DNA of 64,000 nucleotides, taken from an uncultured Actinomycetota bacterium (lineage in GTDB: Bacteria; Actinomycetota; Acidimicrobiia; Spongiisociales; UBA5794). This document shows positions 3,798 to 39,464 of the stretch, one piece after another. A model generated the notes under the pieces. It had not been told where the DNA came from and did no database searches. It was given only the letters and a program-made list of their open reading frames with translations. How positions within the stretch are numbered: position 1 is the first letter of the stretch; the number at the start of each line of letters is the position of its first letter. The stretch lies in contig CAVOXF010000001.1 of the NCBI GenBank assembly GCA_963700375.1, forward strand, positions 91,817-155,816, given 5' to 3'. The position numbers and the translations under genes were made by a program.

Positions 3798-4262
3798 ATG
3801 CGACTCGAGACAGGACAACCGGCGCCGCCGTTCAGCGGGGTCGACCACGACGGCAGAGCGCTGACCAGCGACGACTTCGCGGGTCGGCGCCTGGTCGTGT
3901 ACTTCTATCCGAATGCGTTCACACCTGGATGCACGACCGAGTCGTGCGATTTTCGCGACCGCTACCAGACCTTTGCTGATGCCGGATATGAGATCGTCGG
4001 GGTGAGTCCGAACGAACCCGACGAGCTCGCTCGGTTCCGGGCGGAATATGATCTGCCGTTCCCCCTCATCTCGGATCCGGACCATGTGATCGCCGACGCA
4101 TACGGCGCCTGGGGCATCAAGAAGAACTATGGCCGCGAGTACGAGGGCCTCATTCGTTCCACGATCGTCGTCGACGAGCACGGAGCCGTCGAGCATGCGT
4201 GGTACAACATCAAGGCGACGGGTCACGCGCAGCGGGTGGTCGGATCGGTCGTGGGCGCATGA
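3798..4262 (+). CDS. bcp: thioredoxin-dependent thiol peroxidase (peroxiredoxin Bcp)
   Basis: Peroxiredoxin motif VVYFYPNAFTPGCTTE at 154 aa, which is typical Bcp length. Confidence 0.88.
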   Translation: MRLETGQPAPPFSGVDHDGRALTSDDFAGRRLVVYFYPNAFTPGCTTESCDFRDRYQTFADAGYEIVGVSPNEPDELARFRAEYDLPFPLISDPDHVIADAYGAWGIKKNYGREYEGLIRSTIVVDEHGAVEHAWYNIKATGHAQRVVGSVVGA

Positions 4263-5125
4263 GCGTTCGCACGGCCGTCTTCCCGGTCGCCGGACTCGGG
4301 ACGCGATTCCTCCCCGCCACCAAGGCGGTGCCGAAAGAGATGCTCCCGGTCGTCGACAAGCCACTGATTCAATACGCGGTCGAAGAAGCTCGCGATGCCG
4401 GCATCGAGAACTTCGTCTTCATCACGGCCCACGGAAAGGTCGCGATCGAGAACCACTTCGACCGCGACATGGATCTCGAGCACTACCTCGCCGCCCGCGG
4501 TCAAGACGATCTACTGGACCTCGTCCAGATCGACGGCACCGTTCCAGGTCGAATCTCCTACGTCCGGCAGGTCGAGGCACTCGGACTGGGGCACGCGGTC
4601 TGGTGCGCCAGGAACCTGATCGGGAACGAGCCCTTCGCCGTGCTGCTCGCGGACGAACTCCTTCGGGGCGATCGGCCGCCCCTCAAAGACCTCATCGACG
4701 TTCATGAGCGAACCGGCGGGAACGTGATCTCCGTCATGGAGGTCCCCGCCGACGAGACAGGGTCGTACGGCATTGTGGCTCCGGGAGTGATCGACGGAGG
4801 CGTGATCGAAGTCAAGGGCCTCGTCGAGAAGCCGGACCCGGCCGACGCCCCATCGCGATACGCAGCGATCGGCCGCTACATCCTCGAGCCCCGCGTGATG
4901 GACATCCTGTCGCTTGGCTACACGGGCGCGGGAGGAGAGATCCAACTCACCGATGCGTTGGCGCGACTGATCGGAGGGGCGCCGTTCCACGCGGTCGTCC
5001 ACGAAGGCGAGCGCTACGACTGCGGGAACAAGGTCGGCTTCCTCAGAGCGAACGTCGCGCTGGCACTCGAACGTGACGACCTCGGCGGCGACGTGGAAGC
5101 GACTATCCGCGAACTCCTCAGCTAG
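4259..5125 (+). CDS. galU: UTP--glucose-1-phosphate uridylyltransferase
   Basis: GalU N-terminus MSVRTAVFPVAGLGTRFLPATKAVPKEMLPVVDKP. The ATG at 4259 overlaps the bcp stop. Confidence 0.88.
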   Translation: MSVRTAVFPVAGLGTRFLPATKAVPKEMLPVVDKPLIQYAVEEARDAGIENFVFITAHGKVAIENHFDRDMDLEHYLAARGQDDLLDLVQIDGTVPGRISYVRQVEALGLGHAVWCARNLIGNEPFAVLLADELLRGDRPPLKDLIDVHERTGGNVISVMEVPADETGSYGIVAPGVIDGGVIEVKGLVEKPDPADAPSRYAAIGRYILEPRVMDILSLGYTGAGGEIQLTDALARLIGGAPFHAVVHEGERYDCGNKVGFLRANVALALERDDLGGDVEATIRELLS

Positions 5126-5255
5126 CGCTGCGAACCCAGGGTTCTCCGCATCGCATTTGGCGCCGACAGCCCGCGGAATGGCCGCCGACGATTCGCATCA
5201 CCATTCTGTGGGCCCACGGCGCCACATAGAAAGCCGAGAACCCTGGGTTCGCAGC
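5126..5255. mobile_element. MITE-like palindromic intergenic element, copy A: 20-bp perfect terminal inverted repeats GCTGCGAACCCAGGGTTCTC / GAGAACCCTGGGTTCGCAGC around a ~90-nt core
   Basis: Read from the sequence. The element starts at the first base after the galU TAG. Its inverted termini are identical to those of copy B at 29806..29925, and the internal cores are about 70% identical. Confidence 0.6.
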
Positions 5256-5289
5256 ATCGCATTTGGCGCCGACAGCCCGCGGAATGGCC
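5256..5289. repeat. 34-nt exact direct duplication of the copy-A core segment found at 5150..5183
   Basis: ATCGCATTTGGCGCCGACAGCCCGCGGAATGGCC occurs at 5150-5183, inside the element. It occurs again at 5256-5289, immediately after the right inverted repeat. Confidence 0.7.
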
Positions 5290-5354
5290 GGGCGAGCACC
5301 GTGCGTTCGCGGATCTGCGAGAATCGAAGTCAACCCCGTCCCCTGGAGGAGTCG

Positions 5355-6431
5355 ATGTCGAAGCTGAAAGAACTCGGAGCAGCAGGTCAGAGCGTGTGGC
5401 TCGACTTCATTCGTCGTGACATGGTGTCGAACGGCGACCTCGCCGCCCTCATCGACGAGGGTGTGACCGGCGTCACGTCGAACCCGTCCATCTTCGAAGC
5501 GGCCATCGCCGGTTCCGACCTCTACGACGAGACGATCGCCGCCACCGACGGCGATCCCCAGGCCGTTTTCGAGTCGCTGGCCATCGCCGACGTGCAAGGA
5601 GCGGCCGACCTGCTGCGCGGCGTGTACGACGCGACGGACGGCCTCGACGGCTACGTCAGCCTCGAGGTGTCCCCCACCCTCGCCGACGACGCCGAGGGAA
5701 CCATCGCCGACGCCCGCCGCCTCTGGGATCGCGTGAACCGCCCCAACCTCATGATCAAGGTCCCGGCCACACCTGCCGGAATCATCGCCATCGAAGAGAT
5801 CATCGCGGCAGGTATCAACGTCAACGCCACACTGATGTTCAGCCTCGAGGACTACGAGAACGTCGCCATGGCATACGTGCGAGGCGCCGAACGCACCCAC
5901 GTCCCCGAGCGAATCGCTTCGGTCGCCTCATTCTTCGTGAGCCGCGTTGACAACACGATCGATGCCGCGCTCGACGGCATCGGATCCGACGAAGCCCTCG
6001 CCCTCCGAGGGATCGCCGCGGTGGCGAACGCCAAGCTCGCCTATCGCCGCTACGAGGAGATCTTTGAAGGTGAGCCGTTCGCCGTCGCACGCGCACGCGG
6101 CGCCCGCCCGCAGCGCGCACTGTGGGCCTCGACCTCGACCAAGAACCCCGCATACTCGGACGTCCTCTACGTCGATGAACTCATCGGCCCCAACACGGTG
6201 AACACCATCCCGCCCGCGACCATCGACGCATTCCGCGATCACGGAACAATCGACGCGACGGCGCTGACCACCGGCGTCGAAGAGGCCGGGGCACACTTCG
6301 AGCAGCTCGCCGCACTCGGCGTCGACGTCGACGGGATCACGGCACAGCTTCAGGTCGACGGTGTCGCTTCGTTCGCCAAGGCATTCGAGGGGCTTCTCGC
6401 AGCGATCGAAACGCAGCAAGGCCGGTCATGA
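5355..6431 (+). CDS. tal: transaldolase
   Basis: MSKLKELGAAGQSVWLDFIRRD...TGVTSNPSIFEAAIAG is a transaldolase signature. The SD GGAGGA sits upstream of the ATG at 5355. Confidence 0.9.
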   Translation: MSKLKELGAAGQSVWLDFIRRDMVSNGDLAALIDEGVTGVTSNPSIFEAAIAGSDLYDETIAATDGDPQAVFESLAIADVQGAADLLRGVYDATDGLDGYVSLEVSPTLADDAEGTIADARRLWDRVNRPNLMIKVPATPAGIIAIEEIIAAGINVNATLMFSLEDYENVAMAYVRGAERTHVPERIASVASFFVSRVDNTIDAALDGIGSDEALALRGIAAVANAKLAYRRYEEIFEGEPFAVARARGARPQRALWASTSTKNPAYSDVLYVDELIGPNTVNTIPPATIDAFRDHGTIDATALTTGVEEAGAHFEQLAALGVDVDGITAQLQVDGVASFAKAFEGLLAAIETQQGRS

Positions 6432-10339: not shown

Positions 10340-10372
10340 TCGCCCCGGTCACACGACCGGGGCGATTCTTCT
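10340..10372. terminator. rho-independent terminator hairpin (TCGCCCCGGTC-ACAC-GACCGGGGCGA) followed by TTCTTCT
   Basis: Perfect 11-bp stem with a 4-nt loop and a T-rich tail, read from the sequence. It lies between the convergent DUF4282 and LCP genes. Confidence 0.6.
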
Positions 10373-12032
10373 ACTCAGACGGCGGGTCACATTCGCTTTC
10401 GCCGGTTGAACTCTGGGCCGCCACTCCTTCGGCGAGAACCTTCTTGACCTTCGCGCGAATCCGGTCGAGATCGGGAATCGGGTGGTATCTGGCGTCTCGC
10501 TCGGGAGCGTAATAGGGCGGATTGAACCCGACCGTAGCAATCTGACCGAAGTCGAGTGTGGCTGCTGCCCGCACCAGATCGGGCAGGAATGCGACCGGTA
10601 CGTCGGTCACCACATACCGCTCGATGGCATCAGCAATCGCCGGGAAGGCACGCAAGAGCGTCCACGGGTCCGCCTCCGCCGCCACGGCCCGCAACAGGCA
10701 CCGCTGCCGCGCCATCCGGGCATAGTCCGACGATCCCTTGCGCGCCCGTGCGTAGGCCAGGGCTTCGGTGCCGGAGAGGTGATTCATGCCAACATCGACG
10801 TCGACCGTCGCCCACCGGCCACCCTCCTCAGGTGGCGACACCTCAGACTGCAGCGGTTCCTTGACGTAGACATCGACGCCCCCGACGGCCTCGACGAGTT
10901 CGACAAACGCCTTCATATCCACAAGCACGTAGTAGTCGATGGTGAGGCCGGTCATGTGCTCCACGACGTCGCGGAGCGCCGCCATCCCCGGGTCAACTTC
11001 ATTCGGATACGACTTCGTCCACTTTCGCGTATACGGATAGAGGGCGTTGATCTGCTCGGGGAAGCAGTGGCAGGTCGAGAATCCCGGCTGGTCGGCGACT
11101 CCATCCCCATCGACGTCCGTCCAGGTCGAGGGGTCGTTCGACGGAGAGATGCGACGTTCGAAGTCGACGAAGGCGTTGCGGAATTGCTTCGGCATCGGTA
11201 TCTGGCCCATGTTGCGCGGAATGCCGAAGAGGGCGGCCTCGCCCGTCTGCAGGTCCATCGTCGCGACCATGATCGTGTCGGTTCGCAGCCCTCCGCGCCC
11301 GGGGCCCGAGTCGCCTCCCGCGAGAAGGAACGTCAGCCGGTCGGTGTCCACCCGCTCTTCGAACGGAAGGAACGGGGCCGCAGACACGCCCGAGTTGATG
11401 TTCGGCCGGGCGGCGATGGCCTCCGGATCGCCGATGCCGGGCCGGAAGATCAAGTTCCGGTTTGGGGATGCTTCAGTCGTCGTAGTGGACGGTGGGACGG
11501 ACGTCGTGGTGGTCGTCGTTTCGACGGTGAGCGGGTCCGGGACGGCGTCGGATTCGGCCGATGGCGGTGCCAGGGTCACCGACGTCGGGTTCTCCGCATT
11601 GGCGGACACGAAGACCCGGTCGATCAACCGCACACTCTGGAACCCGTACATCCCGAACAGGACGTGTGGGAGCGCCACGAGCGCGATGAGCGCGCCGAGG
11701 ACACCGAGGGACAAACGACCCGCCCCGTCCGACGCCAGCCGGTATGCATCGCCGATCGCGAACACACGCCACGCGAGGACGACGACGTTGACGACGAGCA
11801 GCGTCCACAGGACGGCAGGCCGAACGACGGCCCCGAGTACGCCAACCACGCCGCTCCATGCGCCGAACAGTACCGCCGCAAGAAGCAGCAGCAGGGGGGA
11901 CGCCACGATGAGGCCGCGCACCATTCGTCCCGCGTACCACTGCCCCGATCCCGGAATCAGGGCCGAGAGGGCGGCCGCGAGCCCGGGCTTCTTGCGCCCC
12001 GTGTCGCGGTCGGCGGCGTGTTCTGCGTCCAT
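10371..12032 (-). CDS. LytR-CpsA-Psr (LCP) family cell-envelope glycopolymer transferase, paralog 1
   Basis: LCP core (LLAGGDSGPGRGGLRTDTIMVA...LSGTEALAYARARKGSSDY...RQRCLLRAV) with N-terminal TM segments. The ATG at 12032 is confirmed. Confidence 0.8.
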   Translation of the reverse strand: MDAEHAADRDTGRKKPGLAAALSALIPGSGQWYAGRMVRGLIVASPLLLLLAAVLFGAWSGVVGVLGAVVRPAVLWTLLVVNVVVLAWRVFAIGDAYRLASDGAGRLSLGVLGALIALVALPHVLFGMYGFQSVRLIDRVFVSANAENPTSVTLAPPSAESDAVPDPLTVETTTTTTSVPPSTTTTEASPNRNLIFRPGIGDPEAIAARPNINSGVSAAPFLPFEERVDTDRLTFLLAGGDSGPGRGGLRTDTIMVATMDLQTGEAALFGIPRNMGQIPMPKQFRNAFVDFERRISPSNDPSTWTDVDGDGVADQPGFSTCHCFPEQINALYPYTRKWTKSYPNEVDPGMAALRDVVEHMTGLTIDYYVLVDMKAFVELVEAVGGVDVYVKEPLQSEVSPPEEGGRWATVDVDVGMNHLSGTEALAYARARKGSSDYARMARQRCLLRAVAAEADPWTLLRAFPAIADAIERYVVTDVPVAFLPDLVRAAATLDFGQIATVGFNPPYYAPERDARYHPIPDLDRIRAKVKKVLAEGVAAQSSTGESECDPPSE

Positions 12033-12200
12033 CGGGCACAACCTATCCCAGAACACGGAGAAGGGCCATCCGGAGGGGGTCGCCGGTCGCGAGTCGCGAG
12101 TCGCCAGAAGGAGAAACGAGGGACTGCGAGCTGCGAAGTGTCCACCAAACCGGGTCAACTACAACGCAAGCGGAGGAGTGGGTCCGGCGACTTGAGGCTC

Positions 12201-13841
12201 CTAGATCCGGCACTCGGTCTCTTTGCCGGTCTCGGGTTGCGTGGTCGGGTCGGCGGTCAGGATCTCTTGCACTTTTGCCCGGATCGCATCGAGGTCGGGG
12301 ATCGGCTGGTTGCGGTGGTTTGTGGTCGGGGCATAGTCGGGCGGTGTGAACCCGACCGTGACGATGTCGTCGAAGTCGAGGGCGGCGGCCTGAGCAACGA
12401 GCGTCGGAACGTAGTCCAGGGGAATGTCCGTCCTGACCGAGGACTTCACCGCGTTCGACAGCGATGTGAAACGGCGCACGATCGTGACCGGGTCTGCACT
12501 GGCCGCGACGGCCTTGAGCATGCAGCGCTGTCGCTTCATGCGCACGTAGTCGCTGCTGGCCTTGCGTTCCCTGACATAGGCCAGTGCCTGATGGCCGTTC
12601 AGTCGGCGCCACCCGGGACGGATGTCGATCTCAATCCAATCCTCGCCCTCGCGCGCCGGCGAGACTTCTGCCTCAACCGAACTTGTCACGTAGGTACGCA
12701 CACCGCCAAGGGCATCCACCACACGGACGAACCCCGACATGTTGACCAAGGCGTAGAAGTCGATGTTGATGCCGAGGAGCATCTCGACGCTGTCACGCAA
12801 GGCGGCCATCCCCGGATCCACCTCGTTCGGATAGGTATCCGTCCACGTGCGTGTGAAGGGGTAGATCGCGTTGATCTGGTCCGGGAAGCAGTTGCACGGG
12901 ACGAACTGATCGGGCACGTTGTCTCCGTTGTCGTCGGTCCAGGCTCTGCGCTCTTCCCACGGGGTGAGTCGTTGCTCCAGGTCGATGAACGCCAGGCTGT
13001 ACTCGGGGTTCAGCGGAACCCGGATCATGTTGCGCGGGATGCTCATGAGCGCCGCCCTACCCGTCAGTGTGTCGAGCGTCGCGACCATGATGGAATCGGT
13101 GCGCAGTCCGCCTCTGCCGGGCCCGGCGTCGCCACCGGCGAGGAGGATCGTGATCCGGTCGATCCCCTCGGTGTCGGCGGGCGGCATCAAGTCCATCGCC
13201 TCAACCGGAGCGGCGATGATCTCGGGCCAGGAGGCGATCGCCTCGGGATCCCCGAGATCCCGGCGGAAGATCAGGTTCCTGGTCGAACGCGGTGCCACGA
13301 TGACGGGGGGTGCCACGAGCGCCGGGTCCGGGACGGAGACGATCGGGGAGTCACCTGGGGCGAAGGGTGCAGGAAGCGGTGGCACCTCCTCAGCGAAGAT
13401 CGGCGCCGCCACATCCCCGGCGACGAAGACCGACTCCAGGAGGTCGATCGCTTCGAGATCGTATGCGACAAACACCGTGTGCGGTGCGGCAACGGCCACG
13501 ATCGTCAGCGACAGAATCGCCGCGGAACCCCAACCCGGCTTCCGTGCGCCGCGCGAGACTCGGAAGGCGTCGACGACCGCCACCTCTCGCCAGGCCAGCA
13601 CCACGAGGTTCGCCGCGAGCAGCGCCCACAGCACCGCCGGCTGAACGGCGAGTTCGAGGATCCGGACGGCTCCGCGCGACCAGAAGGCAACGGCGACCGC
13701 AACCAGAACGACCGACGGCAGGAACATCAAGATCGCACGCCTGACCCGGCCGCCGTACCACTGCCCTGCGCCTGGAATCAAGCCGGAGAGCACCGCGGCA
13801 AGACCCGGACGTTTCCATCTCTGGGCGCTCGTGTCGGTCAT
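12201..13841 (-). CDS. LCP family glycopolymer transferase, paralog 2 (tandem duplicate)
   Basis: Collinear homology with paralog 1 throughout (ILLAGGDAGPGRGGLRTDSIMVA...RQRCMLKAV). It shares the N-terminal motif PGLAAxLSxLIPGxGQWYxGR. Confidence 0.8.
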   Translation of the reverse strand: MTDTSAQRWKRPGLAAVLSGLIPGAGQWYGGRVRRAILMFLPSVVLVAVAVAFWSRGAVRILELAVQPAVLWALLAANLVVLAWREVAVVDAFRVSRGARKPGWGSAAILSLTIVAVAAPHTVFVAYDLEAIDLLESVFVAGDVAAPIFAEEVPPLPAPFAPGDSPIVSVPDPALVAPPVIVAPRSTRNLIFRRDLGDPEAIASWPEIIAAPVEAMDLMPPADTEGIDRITILLAGGDAGPGRGGLRTDSIMVATLDTLTGRAALMSIPRNMIRVPLNPEYSLAFIDLEQRLTPWEERRAWTDDNGDNVPDQFVPCNCFPDQINAIYPFTRTWTDTYPNEVDPGMAALRDSVEMLLGINIDFYALVNMSGFVRVVDALGGVRTYVTSSVEAEVSPAREGEDWIEIDIRPGWRRLNGHQALAYVRERKASSDYVRMKRQRCMLKAVAASADPVTIVRRFTSLSNAVKSSVRTDIPLDYVPTLVAQAAALDFDDIVTVGFTPPDYAPTTNHRNQPIPDLDAIRAKVQEILTADPTTQPETGKETECRI

Positions 13842-14162
13842 GACTGTTCGTCCCGTCTCCCATCGGCGGTACGCGGCGTAGAACCGCCCCCGCCTTCCCC
13901 ACGCGGCGTCAACGTTCCGCGACCCACTTCGGGTTCCCGATCAAACGGATTGCCGCCCGTTCGTGGCGGTCCTGATCCCGGGTACCTCCATGTTGTCACC
14001 GGCCGGCATCCACGATTTCAACACCCAGGTCAGCGGGCCACGATCATCGCGTGGTGAGCGTAGCGAACCACTCCGAAGGTTGATTCGTTCGATGCTGACG
14101 GTGTCGGCATCCACGCGTCGATTCTGGGCAGTAGCCTCGTTTCCACAACCCAGGGAGGCCTT

Positions 14163-28005: not shown

Positions 28006-28281
28006 GGAGGCGCAGAGGAACCCGCCGACTTCCCGACGAGCCCCGATGGCGGAGCCTCCAGCGAGCGAATCCGCCGGTACCAGTCAGGTTCGGCTATGGT
28101 TCGTGGGCCGCACCGGGTGGAGGTCAGCGCTTCGTCGCTTCCCCGGTGGTCTACGGCAGAGTTTCTCACCCGGTTGGACCGCCTCTTCGGCCGACGCTCG
28201 ATCACACAGGCATTGGTGCCCGTCGTTCGAGTCGGAGATCGGCCAATACATCAACGTTCCCAACCGGGATCAGGAGTCATC

Positions 28282-29805
28282 ATGACCACTACCTTTGCTC
28301 AACTCGGGCTGCCCAAGTCACTCGTCGGCGCCCTCGAGCAGCGCGGCATCCTCGAACCGTTCCCCGTGCAGGAGGCAACCATTCCGGATGCCCTCTCCGG
28401 CAAGGATGTGTCGGGCAAGGCCCCAACCGGATCTGGCAAGACCATCGCGTTCGGCCTTCCGCTTCTCGCCCGCGTCGATCGCGCCAAGCCGAATCGCCCC
28501 CGGGCCCTCATCCTGGCTCCCACGCGCGAGCTCGCGGATCAGATCAAGGACGAGCTGGCACCCCTCGCTCAGGCAGTCGGTCGCAACGTGTTCGCCATCT
28601 ACGGTGGCGTCGGATACGGACCGCAGCGCAACGCCATGCGCCGGGGTGTCGACGTTCTCGTCGCAACCCCGGGTCGACTCGAGGACCTGATGGAGCAGCG
28701 GACCGTTGACCTGAGCCAGGCCGATATCGTCGTCGTCGACGAAGCCGATCGGATGGCCGACATGGGGTTCCTTCCCGCCGTCAAGCGCATTCTCGACCAC
28801 ACCGCGAAGAAGCGTCAGACACTGTTGTTCTCGGCAACGCTCGACGGTGATATCGCCGTCCTGAGCCGCTCCTACCAGCACGACCCTGTTCGCCACGACG
28901 CCGGCACGGTGGATGCTGAGGCCATCGACGCCAAGCACCACTTCTGGCTGGTCGAGCATCACGACCGGGTCGACCACACCGCCGACCTGATCAAGGCTGC
29001 CGACCGCTCGATCGTCTTCACGAGAACCCGCCACGGGGCGGACCGCCTCGCCAAACAGCTGACGAAACTCGGCGTGACCGCCGTCGCCATGCACGGAGGT
29101 CGCTCACAGAATCAGCGCAACCGTGCGCTCAAGGCGTTCTCCTCATACCGGGCTCAAGCGCTGATCGCCACGGACGTCGCCGCCCGTGGGATCCACATCG
29201 ATGCCGTTGCGTCGGTCATCCACTTCGACCCACCGGCGGATCACAAGGACTACCTCCACCGTTCCGGTCGCACGGCTCGCGCTGGAGCGACTGGGACCGT
29301 GGTGAGCCTTGTCACCGGCGAGCAGAAGCGAGCCGTTCGTAGGATGCAAATGGATCTCGATCTCGACGCTCCGATTGAAGCCCCGGCCCTCGATGCTCTC
29401 GACTTCGGGGGCTACCGGATCGGTACGCCGTCGACGAATGGGTCGAGGCCGTCGTCGAAGAACACCCGGAGCGAAAGGCAACAGAGCCGGCCGGCGAAGC
29501 CGTCCAAGCCGGAGCGCACGCCGTCGAACGGCGGAGGTCCCACGAAGGGCGGCGAGAGCGTATACGTCGCGAACCTGCCCTGGGGCACCACCGAGTCCGA
29601 CGTGGTCCGGATGTTCTCCCCATACGGCGACGTCCACCAGGCCACACTGATCACCGATCGACGAACGGGACGGTCGAAGGGATTCGGCTTCGTCGACATG
29701 CCTCGTCCGGCCGCACGCAGCGCCGTCGACGGGCTGCACGGGACGAAGATGGGCGGTCGCGACCTGACGGTTCGTCTGGCCAAGCCCAGAGCCCACGCCC
29801 GCTGA
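28282..29805 (+). CDS. DEAD-box ATP-dependent RNA helicase with C-terminal RRM (RNP-1/RNP-2) domain
   Basis: Q-motif FPVQEA, Walla A APTGSGKT, DEAD, SAT and HGG motifs. A basic S/R/K linker is followed by VYVANL (RNP2) and KGFGFVDM (RNP1). Confidence 0.9.
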   Translation: MTTTFAQLGLPKSLVGALEQRGILEPFPVQEATIPDALSGKDVSGKAPTGSGKTIAFGLPLLARVDRAKPNRPRALILAPTRELADQIKDELAPLAQAVGRNVFAIYGGVGYGPQRNAMRRGVDVLVATPGRLEDLMEQRTVDLSQADIVVVDEADRMADMGFLPAVKRILDHTAKKRQTLLFSATLDGDIAVLSRSYQHDPVRHDAGTVDAEAIDAKHHFWLVEHHDRVDHTADLIKAADRSIVFTRTRHGADRLAKQLTKLGVTAVAMHGGRSQNQRNRALKAFSSYRAQALIATDVAARGIHIDAVASVIHFDPPADHKDYLHRSGRTARAGATGTVVSLVTGEQKRAVRRMQMDLDLDAPIEAPALDALDFGGYRIGTPSTNGSRPSSKNTRSERQQSRPAKPSKPERTPSNGGGPTKGGESVYVANLPWGTTESDVVRMFSPYGDVHQATLITDRRTGRSKGFGFVDMPRPAARSAVDGLHGTKMGGRDLTVRLAKPRAHAR

Positions 29806-29925
29806 CGCTGCGAACCCAGGGTTCTCCGCGTTCTATTTGGCGCCCCGGGCCCGCGGAACAGAACGCTCCACGAACCGTGGGCTGACGGCGTCATATACAA
29901 GGCTGAGAACCCTGGGTTCGCAGCG
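29806..29925. mobile_element. MITE-like palindromic intergenic element, copy B (same terminal inverted repeats as copy A)
   Basis: It starts at the first base after the helicase TGA. It has the 20-bp termini GCTGCGAACCCAGGGTTCTC / GAGAACCCTGGGTTCGCAGC (the right repeat matches for 21 nt), and the core is related to copy A. Confidence 0.6.
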
Positions 29926-29981
29926 TCACCTCACATATTCAACGACCTCGGGTCACACGGACCCGTTTGAAAGGAGTGCCG

Positions 29982-30206
29982 ATGAAGAAGGCACAACACA
30001 ACTCGCGCAACTGCGCACCGATGACCATCAATCAGATGCGACGGGGCGGCACCTACCGCGCTACCACGCGCATCGGCAGCGCCGCCGGCCAGTTCCTCGG
30101 ACTCGAGACACCGCACGGCGATCGGTCGATCCTGCTTCGCGGCCGGACGGGGACCGCCTCGATCTCGCTCAGCGACATCACCTCGATCTGCCCAACGGCC
30201 GCCTGA
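29982..30206 (+). CDS. hypothetical small protein (74 aa)
   Basis: Strong SD GAAAGGAG sits 8 nt upstream of ATG 29982. No recognisable domain. Confidence 0.4.
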   Translation: MKKAQHNSRNCAPMTINQMRRGGTYRATTRIGSAAGQFLGLETPHGDRSILLRGRTGTASISLSDITSICPTAA

Positions 30207-30530
30207 CGGCGTCGACGGCGTCCTCAGCCACCCTGCACCCTCCGTGCAGACCTCCGTCTTCGACAATACGGCGATCACCCTCTCGGTCAGCTACTGGTAC
30301 CCATCGTCTGAATCATCCGGGGCATCCATGACGGATCGAGCGTTCCGAGCCGTCAAGAAGGCACGTGTTGATGCGAAGGTGGAACTCCCACATCCGACGC
30401 TCGATACAAACCAGGAGGCAGAACCGCCTGCGAGCCCCTCACCCGACGGATCAGCCAACCCACCGGTAGCAACCGCGAAGGACGCCGATACCACCTGAGA
30501 CGCTCGAGCGAAGCGGCCGACGATCCGGTC

Positions 30531-31013
30531 TCACTCGGCAGCGGACGGACCCGCTTCACGCGGTGGATCCACGGGGACCTCGGCCAGCAGTGGAACACTC
30601 TCGATGGGTGCAACTGCACCCGAATCGAGCGCCTTCCTCTGCGCCCTCTTGCCGATGCGATGCTTCGTGCGCACCTGGATCCACGATGCGACGATGGCGA
30701 TGCCGCTGAAGATGTAGAACACCGTGAAGACCTTCGAGAAATCCGACGACGGCTTGAGATCCCCAAAACCGACGGCAGTCAATGCGACCGAACTGAAGTA
30801 GAACGAGTCGACGAGGCTCCAACCCTCGATCACCGAGTAGGCCACCGTCCCTCCCAACAGGACGAAGACCGCCGCACCCCCGAGGATTCGGTTGCTGTGC
30901 CGATCCCACAAGCTCGCGGCTTCAGCATCTCGCGCTGCGGGATCGATTGGCGCGTTCAATGCGTTCCCTCCTCGAGGCGGCAGTCCGAGCGAAGACTCAC
31001 CGGGCTCCCACAT
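30531..31013 (-). CDS. two-TM potassium channel (ion_trans_2 family)
   Basis: Pore helix plus selectivity filter TAVGFGD flanked by two TM helices. Confidence 0.75.
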   Translation of the reverse strand: MWEPGESSLGLPPRGGNALNAPIDPAARDAEAASLWDRHSNRILGGAAVFVLLGGTVAYSVIEGWSLVDSFYFSSVALTAVGFGDLKPSSDFSKVFTVFYIFSGIAIVASWIQVRTKHRIGKRAQRKALDSGAVAPIESVPLLAEVPVDPPREAGPSAAE

Positions 31014-31035
31014 CGCCAGCTCGAGTCGACCTGAC

Positions 31036-32430
31036 TCAGCCGTCTTCAGCTTCGATCCGGCCCGACGCGATTGCAGCGGTGAAGGCTTCGAAGTCCCGCT
31101 GTGCCTGGTCGGCGTAGGCGGAAGCGAATTCCGTCAGCGCGTCGGCAAACACGGTTCCCGAACCGATGTATCCGGAAATCTGAAATGGATCTCCGGAGCG
31201 TGCATGGGATCGTGCAAGGGTCCACCCGCAAACACCGGCGTAGATCTTCAGCCTGCGCGGACTCATGGTCGCGATGTCAACCGAGCCCTTCATGTCGTAG
31301 AGCTGACGCCAATAGAACGCGCGACCCGCCGCACCGACCGACCAACCGAGGAAGATGTCACTCTCGGCCTGCATGAGGCGCTGGCCGCGCACCACTCGCT
31401 CGCCATGTTCGGAATACCTGCTCTTCGGCAGGTGAGCCTCGAGAACCGAATCGGTCGCTTCCTTGACCTGGAGGAAGAGCGGGTCCGTGGCGTCGCTCGC
31501 CTGGAGCAACACAATCAGGCAGCGCGTGCCCACGCTTCCGACGCCAACGACCTTCACGCCAATATCAACGATGTGATACTTGTCGATCAGGACTCTGCGG
31601 TTGTCGCTGAGCGTGCCCTTGTACTGTGCAAAGCTGCGCTCGGCGCCTTCTCTCAACTGACCGGGATCGTACTCGGCCGGTAGATCCCTGAGGGGTACGA
31701 GCAGCGGCGGGTCACTCTTGATGCGGAACTTGCCATCAACGTTCTCTGCGAGTCGGCTCAGCGCCCTCAGACTGTCTTTCGAACGAGCTTTCGCTGTGGA
31801 CTTCTCGACCCGCGCTCGGTCCTTCTTCTTTGGCAGGGCGTCGGTGATTTGCTGCAGCGTGAGATGCGCGTACCAGACGTCCAGCGTGGTCATCATGGTG
31901 AACCCGGCCATGGCCTGCTGGTAGGCGAGGACCGACGTTGTTGCCAACTCGCGGATATCGGCATCGTCGAACTGGCTGTCACGCCCTGCGAGGACGAAGC
32001 TGGCCGCCAGTCGCTTCAGATCCCACTCCCAAGGCCCGGGGAGCGTCTCATCGAAGTCATTGATATCGAAGATCTGCTGGCGCGTCGGCGTGCCGAACGA
32101 ACCGAAGTTCGAGAGATGTGCATCGCCGCAGATCTGGCTGGTCAACCCGGATGCCGGCGTACCGGCCAGGTCCGCCGCCATAATCGCGGCCGCACCGCGA
32201 TAGAACGTGAATGCCGACTCAGCCATGCGGTAGTGGCGGATCGGGACCAGCCATGGGATCCGGTCGGCGTTCTGGTCGGTGATCAGCGTCACGGGATCGG
32301 CGCGGTCCGCCGGCGGAGTCCAGACCGCATGGCTCGACCTCGGGACGGTCCTACGTATCTCCTTGCCGCGCGCCGTGCGGTCCGCGGGTGTGGCCGACTC
32401 AGTCATCTCTTCATCCTCCAAGCCGGCCAC
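31036..32430 (-). CDS. DUF2252 family protein
   Basis: Full-length match to the DUF2252 architecture (FYRGAA...GDAHLSNFG...DINDFDET). Confidence 0.7.
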   Translation of the reverse strand: MAGLEDEEMTESATPADRTARGKEIRRTVPRSSHAVWTPPADRADPVTLITDQNADRIPWLVPIRHYRMAESAFTFYRGAAAIMAADLAGTPASGLTSQICGDAHLSNFGSFGTPTRQQIFDINDFDETLPGPWEWDLKRLAASFVLAGRDSQFDDADIRELATTSVLAYQQAMAGFTMMTTLDVWYAHLTLQQITDALPKKKDRARVEKSTAKARSKDSLRALSRLAENVDGKFRIKSDPPLLVPLRDLPAEYDPGQLREGAERSFAQYKGTLSDNRRVLIDKYHIVDIGVKVVGVGSVGTRCLIVLLQASDATDPLFLQVKEATDSVLEAHLPKSRYSEHGERVVRGQRLMQAESDIFLGWSVGAAGRAFYWRQLYDMKGSVDIATMSPRRLKIYAGVCGWTLARSHARSGDPFQISGYIGSGTVFADALTEFASAYADQAQRDFEAFTAAIASGRIEAEDG

Positions 32431-39219: not shown

Positions 39220-39464
39220 TGTTTAGTGCTAAATGACTTAGTTAGTAAATATACACACGAATTCGGATACCGCAAATGGTTTTCGGAGATTTCTTCGCGA
39301 GAGGCTGAAGAGCGAACGCGAAAGCCTTGTGGGGTAAGGGTCGCGAGGTAGGCTCATCCGTCCGACCATTGCCGCCAAGGACGGCGTTGGCGCCCCCCAC
39401 ACCGTTCTTGCGCAACTATGGGAAGCCCGCTTCCACTATCTACGCAAGAACGGTGGAGGGTGGC

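Follow-up and report, generated by a model that had tools for sequence, protein, structure and literature searches.

In bacterial interspersed mosaic elements (BIMEs), repetitive extragenic palindromes (REPs) of the Y and Z types pair in opposite orientation. The mycobacterial interspersed repetitive units (MIRUs) are reportedly intergenic direct tandem repeats of ~50-100 bp with a frame-keeping period and with ends that overlap the flanking stop codons; they are said to be non-palindromic and to form no inverted dimers, and translational coupling via a small open reading frame (ORF) has reportedly been proposed for them. REPs are found mostly downstream of ORFs, where the terminus of the repeat often overlaps or supplies a TAG stop codon, and the main text of the survey describing this does not contain the word 'Actinobacteria' (Di Nocera et al. 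2013, PMC3733652). The mycobacterial motif TRIT ('Tuberculosis Rho-independent terminator') occurs in 147 palindromic copies at a narrow offset from stop codons, and the conservation of its sequence led the authors to propose a binding factor (Gardner et al. 2011, PMC3152330). We analysed a stretch of 64,000 nt from an uncultured bacterium of the Acidimicrobiia (GenBank assembly GCA_963700375.1, contig CAVOXF010000001.1, positions 91,817 to 155,816 of the forward strand; hereafter the window), which contains two copies of a palindromic element, copy A downstream of a galU-like gene and copy B downstream of a DEAD-box helicase gene. Both copies belong to a lineage-restricted repeat family with hundreds of members. 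We regard it, with a probability of roughly 0.55, as a new REP/BIME-like (and also TRIT-like) family, and we infer that it probably functions as a sequence-specific gene-end element. The family is undescribed, yet the kind of element, REP/BIME-like, is well known; a full-text literature search for palindromic intergenic repeats in Acidimicrobiia gave no paper.

The exact 20-mer GCTGCGAACCCAGGGTTCTC was detected four times in the window, at 5127-5146 (+), 5236-5255 (-), 29807-29826 (+) and 29905-29924 (-), where none is expected (0 in 100 shuffles). The four occurrences form two inverted pairs, which are copy A and copy B. The initial annotation, which had described copy A as resembling a miniature inverted-repeat transposable element (MITE), was right about its perfect 20-bp terminal inverted repeats (TIRs) and about a second copy with the same termini after the helicase stop codon. 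In copy B the complementarity reaches 25 bp, the stop codon being part of it (TGACGCTGC...GCAGCGTCA). The termini had also been called near-palindromic, and their inner 13-mer GAACCCWGGGTTC, starting at 5132, 5238, 29812 and 29907, is in fact a perfect palindrome. The galU-like ORF (4199-5125, Pfam NTP_transferase) ends with a TAG at 5123-5125, so that the perfect inverted repeat begins one base past the stop codon, with a C at 5126 between them. The head of the repeat unit abuts the stop at 5126. The gene 3' of copy A encodes a transaldolase (tal) and starts at 5355. Copy B follows an ORF (28006-29805) for a DEAD-box helicase with a C-terminal RRM. A profile of the repeat unit detected five units in the window and no others, in the order forward-reverse-forward at the galU site and forward-reverse at the helicase site. 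Copy A is thus an inverted dimer plus a third unit, for which the second palindrome serves again, and copy B consists of two units joined tail-to-tail. Pairwise alignment of the two loci, flanks included, gave a mean column identity of 80%, and over 58 nt the left units of the two copies were 78% identical.

The repeat unit is 57-60 nt long and begins with a head of 6 nt (CGCTGC), followed by a perfect palindrome of 13 bp (GAACCCAGGGTTC) and then by ~37 nt of conserved, non-palindromic arm, for which copies aligned in register give the consensus TCCACCYCGTATRYGGCGCCGNCAGCCCGCGGAATGG, ending in GCCCGCGGAATGG. The 20-bp 'TIR' is the head of this unit. A scan for the exact 20-mer, with one genome per species, found it in 45 stretches from 6 metagenome-assembled genomes (MAGs), 5 of which are uncultured Actinomycetota/Acidimicrobiia. 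The sixth MAG is titled Gammaproteobacteria; the flanks on its contig (L034, CAVYHX010000031.1) are 95% identical to those of an Actinomycetota contig (L009) with the same repeats, and from this similarity we consider the contig probably mis-binned. Scanning of metagenomes added at least 120 loci, most of them out of a single sediment sample series, and one of them (L080, of the Ga03161xx coastal-sediment series) was 99.7% identical to window positions 29701-31209. When the unit profile was run over a pooled 1.3 Mb of related DNA, 411 units were detected in 203 clusters, of which 71 were inverted dimers joined tail-to-tail, 57 were tandem pairs and 54 held a single unit; the other 21 were larger or mixed arrays. 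None of the 203 clusters was a bare head-to-head pair. All units, among the matches listed, came from a narrow group of Acidimicrobiia MAGs and from coastal-sediment metagenomes, and a 17-mer search of viral contigs gave no match. The element is therefore not confined to the two copies first noticed. Nor did it correspond to a known RNA family: searching the whole window against Rfam gave nothing at gathering thresholds, and copy A showed only chance-level microRNA matches (E ~2).

The architecture of the family is regular. The 13-bp palindrome was exact in 310 of 374 units, and the tandem spacing was 60 nt in 74 of 88 cases. In the inverted arrangement the palindrome starts were separated by 106 nt (64/82) or by 95-96 nt (16/82), and the span of the dimer was 119 nt in 47 of the 63 unique dimers. 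Every unique dimer of 119-nt span scored as a heterodimer of an alpha and a beta unit (43/43). The two arms within one element were less alike (identity 0.69) than arms compared across elements (0.77), which indicates that the dimer was propagated as a whole. Same-strand matches every 60 nt suggested a CRISPR array as a further candidate. This was rejected because the whole 60-nt period repeats: at locus L008 (3823-4052), a true 60-nt tandem repeat that starts directly after a TAA stop codon, the supposed 'spacer' repeats with the rest of the period. All palindromes of the window read GAAC-CCWGG-GTTC, and the arm also contains GGCGCC and CCGCGG. The central CCWGG is presumably a site of the Dcm/Vsr type, and the GAAC and GTTC half-sites resemble the actinobacterial LexA/SOS box but are spaced by 5 nt rather than 4, and the reading as such a box was not favoured.

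Of the options given in the initial annotation, a REP-like element was listed last and fits best. With REPs and BIMEs the family shares its high copy number, extragenic location and palindrome, the mosaic of singles, inverted dimers and tandem clusters, the position mostly downstream of ORFs in co-directional or convergent gaps with a unit end adjoining the stop codon, and the pairing of two subtypes, alpha and beta, in opposite orientation. It differs from them in the build of its unit (REPs are imperfect palindromes of 20-40 bp), in having the head CGCTGC instead of a GTAG/CGTC tag, in a 6-nt stop register much sharper than REP descriptions and in its acidimicrobial host. The dimer recalls the REPINs of the REPIN-RAYT system, being a hairpin-forming inverted doublet of constant length that was apparently propagated as one entity and has persisted vertically for long in its lineage (PMC3116915; PMC5581495; bioRxiv 10.1101/2021.07.10.451892). 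Unlike in that system, a search beside the 203 clusters found no RAYT or other Y1 transposase, direct 60-nt tandem arrays and doublets occur at about equal frequency, and the GTAG head is absent. The closest actinobacterial analogue, compared by description only, is the mycobacterial TRIT. Both are highly conserved, bidirectional palindromic motifs of Actinobacteria, with roughly 10^2 copies per genome and a location that varies very little with respect to the closest stop codon. TRIT, however, lies mostly inside the coding sequence at ~ -8, whereas here the stop precedes the element; it has been reported only in Mycobacterium, and tandem and single-unit forms have not been described for it. 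MITEs such as Correia/CREE, ERIC/IRU and MITEAba12 are similar in their length of ~120-130 nt, their perfect terminal inverted repeats of 20-25 bp, their whole-element hairpin and their dispersed intergenic copies. The present family differs from MITEs in the absence of target-site duplications and of any parent insertion sequence with the same ends in the 1.3 Mb, and its 'TIR' is found by itself and in direct tandem arrays as well.

The elements sit mostly at the 3' ends of genes, with the stop codon abutting the head. Among the 282 unit heads that have no unit before them, 154 face a gene, lying near the stop of a long ORF with a high G+C content at third codon positions, and in 84 of these the stop codon ends exactly 6 nt before the palindrome. 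The stop-codon association noticed at the outset is thus real and very sharp. At the 6-nt offset TAA accounted for 46% of the stops, compared with 5% in the background, and the base before the stop was C in 76 of the 84 cases, compared with 39%; the base after the stop was C in 61 of the 84. At other offsets the filler between stop and CGCTGC was always a 3' suffix of CCCCCACA. The head is preceded by C-TRR at gene ends and by ...CACA or CCCA elsewhere. At the junctions within tandem arrays, CTGG, GTGG or ATGG takes the place of these four bases, which places a TGG in the frame in which the first unit has its stop codon. Single and tandem clusters point their heads toward gene 3' ends in a ratio of ~2:1, and a search of the units of the pooled 1.3 Mb found no stop-codon register on the tail side. 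Of the clusters whose flanking genes were classified, 49 lay between convergent, 63 between co-directional and 22 between divergent genes.

The in-frame TGG at internal junctions, together with a tandem period of 60 nt that equals 20 codons, raises the question of translation: read-through of the stop codon, or in-frame arrays, might extend the upstream protein by a peptide that repeats every 20 residues. The unit has no stop codon in any of its three forward frames, judging from the sequence of locus L008 and from ORF translations, and the C that frequently follows the stop is a weak termination context in E. coli. We nevertheless hold this to be very improbable. Open frames are expected by chance in such GC-rich DNA, dimers and reverse orientation are equally conserved, no sign of a coding-type substitution pattern was found in the units, and the enriched stop codon is the efficient TAA, the opposite of what read-through would lead one to expect. 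The family resembles MIRUs in its intergenic direct tandem repeats, frame-keeping period and stop-adjoining ends; it differs from them in being palindromic and forming inverted dimers, and MIRU-type translational coupling received no support here.

The elements are, to judge from the genomes compared, vertically inherited at orthologous sites. For almost every element, the orthologous site in other genomes is occupied as well, even when flank identity is only 67-94%. The galU-tal spacer of MAG CAWAUO01 (locus L044, ~81% identical to the window) contains the same forward-reverse-forward trimer, with its own sequence variants common to units 1 and 3; the arm of unit A2 is 95% identical to its orthologue there. 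The internal 34-nt duplication described in copy A does exist as an exact repeat (5256-5289 is identical to 5150-5183, and the identity runs one base further, to 35 nt). It is not a fresh duplication; by comparison with L044, it is a conserved third unit sharing the second palindrome. In a third genome (L011) the galU site is occupied by a simple tandem pair. A unit head was found at the galU stop in five genomes, where the stops are TAG, TAG, TGA, TAG+1 and TAA.

At the DEAD-box site a dimer was present in 9 loci, counting the window and the 99.7%-identical L080. Pairwise identity there was 0.96 at codon positions 1+2 and 0.70 at codon position 3 of the coding sequence, 0.82 in the left arm, 0.87 in the right arm and 0.70 in the centre of the dimer. 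The arms are thus constrained, while the centre drifts at about the rate of third codon positions; the length of the centre is kept despite this drift. Concerted evolution was considered as well. Its signal was weak, with an arm identity of 0.764 within a MAG and 0.709 between MAGs, close orthologues being more alike than paralogues, and homogenisation within genomes is accordingly weak. In two metagenome contigs the synteny with the window breaks inside the galU-site repeat (L136, about 5930-5973; L163, about 60-182), and a dimer with a 74-nt internal deletion was seen at L006 (1224-1282). These cases show the repeats as points of rearrangement and decay.

The lead proposal of the initial annotation, a MITE, was not borne out, and the elements are not classical MITEs or transposons with TIRs and target-site duplications. 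For boundaries 5-12 nt outside the palindrome, no target-site duplication was detected in the 63 unique dimers; matches of 2 nt and 4 nt, in no more than 4 of the 63, remained near what shuffling gives. Within and around the 203 clusters (1.3 Mb) no transposase was detected, neither one with the same ends, as had been suggested, nor any other. The genes between and beside the units are housekeeping genes, and the largest multi-locus protein cluster near them consists of ABC-transporter ATPases. A motif search and phmmer found no Y1/HUH-like ORF among 7,940 six-frame ORFs of the 1.3 Mb, the phmmer half of this test being weak since its query was an approximate E. coli YafM sequence. Some sites differ in occupancy between genomes; among those examined none was a clean empty site, the apparent ones being decayed or internally deleted elements or poorly alignable regions. 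A TA duplication of the IS630/mariner type was considered in view of the TAA/TAG enrichment and rejected because the distal flank is not TA; it is typically TGTGG or similar.

A gene of ~310 aa with similarity to AbiEi_4 and to REase_MTES_1575/DUF559 (scores for both under the Pfam cut-offs) is flanked by a forward and a reverse unit 965-969 nt from each other, at L041 818-1747 and L042 3952-4950 and also in L086, L069, L085, L133 and L165. At L041 and L042 its last four codons and stop (HSAG-TGA) come from the unit tail. As a cognate mobility gene it was rejected, all occurrences representing one single orthologous locus.

What these results leave for mobility is a non-autonomous MITE- or REPIN-type element for which a transposase gene located elsewhere in the genome, be it a single-copy Y1 gene of the RAYT kind or some other, would still provide copying in trans, and which would insert preferentially beside TAR/TGA stop codons, where it is harmless. 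The dispersal over more than 200 sites would be explained in this way, as would the fixed 119-nt alpha/beta dimer at 43 or more distinct sites, which looks as if copied whole, the abutment of heads on stops with strongly enriched TAA/TAG and a suffix-like filler, and the differences in occupancy. REPINs, too, consist of two REPs in inverted orientation, and RAYTs occur as single-copy, vertically transmitted genes (PMC3116915, PMC5581495). Against it stand the missing target-site duplications, Y1/HUH-like ORFs and clean empty sites, the housekeeping neighbours, the absence from viral contigs, and the orthologous occupancy between such diverged flanks. We consider continuing mobility rather unlikely.

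In the reading that we prefer, that of a sequence-specific gene-end element, each unit would be a recognition module. A dimeric factor would most likely read the palindrome together with the arm, in the transcript or in DNA, and thereby mark the gene end. In the dimer form the mRNA is predicted to fold into an imperfect hairpin with arms of ~55 nt that begins one base past the stop, and a ribosome terminating at the abutting stop codon would need to melt the base of this hairpin. Such a hairpin could be a 3'-end barrier in either direction, either by protecting from 3' exonucleases or by insulating neighbouring transcription units. The family probably spread long ago via some copying mechanism and would now be kept in place.

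Both copies fold as long imperfect hairpins, at -103.6 kcal/mol for copy A (z = -7.4) and -89 kcal/mol for copy B (z = -10.8), and no shuffle was as stable. The hairpin of copy B is kept in 8 orthologues, in which the one-sided changes were mostly wobble-compatible (20 G-U versus 4 C-A cells on the sense strand), counts that reflect few independent events. For the single unit, RNAalifold detected no conserved fold beyond the 13-mer palindrome. The initial annotation had also offered a structured 3' UTR RNA as an explanation.

Several observations weigh against a gene-end function. Divergent genes flank 22 of the 134 classified clusters (16%), and no candidate for the predicted partner protein was identified. 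The slow evolution of the arms could be explained by gene conversion between copies instead of selection for a host function. Orthologous sites vary in architecture: where one lineage has a dimer, another has a tandem pair or only one unit. In the 8 orthologues of copy B, changes on both sides were found in only 3 of 37 pairs, with a covariation term of -1.5 kcal/mol. Pairing within an element (0.761) was no better than pairing across elements, in which an alpha arm was matched to a beta arm from elsewhere (0.773), and compensatory evolution was rejected on this ground. Selection on a sense-strand RNA was likewise rejected: the asymmetry of G-U versus C-A was 73:83 in a first data set and 144:144 in a larger one, G-U pairs thus being equally frequent in sense and antisense across the family. 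Neither element of the window is followed by a U-tract, and no terminator-like site was called there. In M. tuberculosis, the overlap of predicted TRITs with 3' ends mapped by Term-seq was minimal (bioRxiv 10.1101/2022.06.01.494293). As far as these alignments can tell, the long hairpin cannot be the conserved functional entity. Since orthologous sites exchange dimers for tandem pairs, the conserved entity is the unit rather than the long hairpin, and since neither compensatory pairing nor strand asymmetry was detected, the constraint acts mainly on the primary sequence.

The same results bear on the proposal that the inverted dimer is a factor-independent, 'I-shaped' intrinsic terminator in which the long hairpin is the functional part. 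A GC-rich hairpin is present, as in canonical intrinsic terminators, and it speaks for the proposal that the hairpins are very stable and begin at the stop codon. Clusters are commoner in convergent and co-directional gaps than in divergent ones, a conserved promoter-like block lies 3' of copy A upstream of tal, and most one-sided changes in the copy B orthologues keep the pairing. The absence of a U-tract and of covariation weakens the proposal, as do the Term-seq results on TRIT; it also lacks a family-wide strand bias, and the tandem pairs and singles at orthologous sites cannot form the long hairpin. We regard it as distinctly unlikely.

Constraint on the primary sequence would also be expected if the family acted at the level of DNA, the unit being a binding site for a dimeric DNA-binding protein and the hairpin a by-product. 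This protein could be nucleoid-associated, could be a gyrase- or IHF-like partner of the kind suggested for the BIMEs of E. coli, or could act as a roadblock to transcription. This would suit a core that is a perfect 13-bp palindrome, so often exact, the lack of compensatory pairing and of strand asymmetry, the dimer spacing of 106 or 95-96 bp (~10 and ~9 helical turns) that is kept while the centre drifts, and the use of the same sites by singles, tandem arrays or dimers. It leaves the exact 6-nt stop register without an obvious reason and the turning of heads, not tails, toward gene ends unexplained; the 60-bp tandem period corresponds to ~5.7 helical turns and would put tandem sites out of phase, and here, too, no candidate protein was identified. 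Action on DNA alone appears unlikely to us.

The register is what a narrower form of the gene-end reading takes as its starting point. A dedicated factor, not a RAYT, might read palindrome and arm of each unit in the mRNA and act together with the terminating ribosome, setting mRNA 3' ends, transcript stability or ribosome release; with the stop 6 nt away, the footprint of the ribosome would span the head and half of the palindrome. This stop-locked system is a tentative proposal, to which we assign a low probability. If it were true, the family would be the acidimicrobial counterpart of the unexplained mycobacterial TRIT, and it would hint at a wider actinobacterial mechanism that replaces U-tract terminators.

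How gene ends are marked in high-GC Actinobacteria is an open question, canonical U-tract terminators being rare there; TRIT has so far been the sole conserved motif known in this role, and its activity has not been demonstrated. The present family is a second, independent stop-locked conserved palindromic repeat, from a class different from that of TRIT. Its modularity, with single, tandem and inverted-dimer forms, suits it for separating the role of the sequence from that of the hairpin. The unit profile also labels a clade of uncultured sediment Acidimicrobiia and flags contigs that are likely mis-binned, and the units mark sites where assemblies and synteny tend to break. If the family is merely a decaying selfish repeat, it would be one more REP-like family of modest interest. 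Three of its features call for an explanation: the exact stop register, the fixed dimer spacing around a drifting centre and the sequence constraint without covariation. The coordinates of the repeat units and adjoining stop codons in the window are collected in Table 1.

Table 1. Repeat units of copies A and B, with adjoining stop codons and dimer centres, in window coordinates
Feature	Position	Strand	Details
galU-like TAG stop	5123..5125	+	adjoins the A1 head; 6 nt separate it from the palindrome
Unit A1, alpha-type, forward	5126..5183	+	nhmmer match 5125-5181, 62 bits; head CGCTGC 5126-5131, palindrome GAACCCAGGGTTC 5132-5144, conserved arm 5145-5183
Variable centre of the copy A dimer (hairpin loop)	5184..5200		centres are not conserved between elements
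Unit A2, beta-type, reverse	5201..5256	-	nhmmer match 5201-5257 (-), 58 bits; arm 5201-5237, palindrome 5238-5250, head 5251-5256
Unit A3, forward	5238..5290	+	nhmmer match 5231-5287 (+), 42 bits; 91% identical to A1; head is the re-used palindrome 5238-5250; arm 5251-5290 includes the 34-nt repeat 5256-5289
DEAD-box/RRM helicase TGA stop	29803..29805	+	6 nt before the palindrome; pairs with TCA 29926-29928 in the hairpin
Unit B1, forward	29806..29860	+	nhmmer match 29805-29860, 53 bits; head CGCTGC, palindrome 29812-29824, then arm
Variable centre of the copy B dimer	29861..29874		palindrome-to-palindrome spacing 95 nt, short class
Unit B2, reverse	29875..29925	-	nhmmer match 29871-29926 (-), 60 bits; arm, palindrome 29907-29919, head 29920-29925

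A few further features of the window were observed. Between the repeat and the start of tal, the block GTGCGTTCGCGGATCTGCGAGAATCG (5296-5327) hardly varies among three genomes. With its TGn and the GAGAAT after it, this block may serve as the promoter of tal, although a scan with the sigma-70 consensus did not call it. Downstream of copy B, a small hairpin (CGGGTC-ACACG-GACCCG, 29937-29966) lies just 5' of a ribosome-binding site (GAAAGGAG) and of the ATG at 29982 of an ORF of 74 aa that has no Pfam match; the hairpin was kept at the same place in nine loci and showed a double change from T:A to C:G. An intergenic inverted repeat at 39395-39460, with 32-nt arms, a 2-nt gap and 78% complementarity, is unrelated to the unit family. 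Direct-repeat families ~1.8 kb apart are accounted for by two adjacent paralogous genes on the - strand, at 10371-12158 and 12201-13940.

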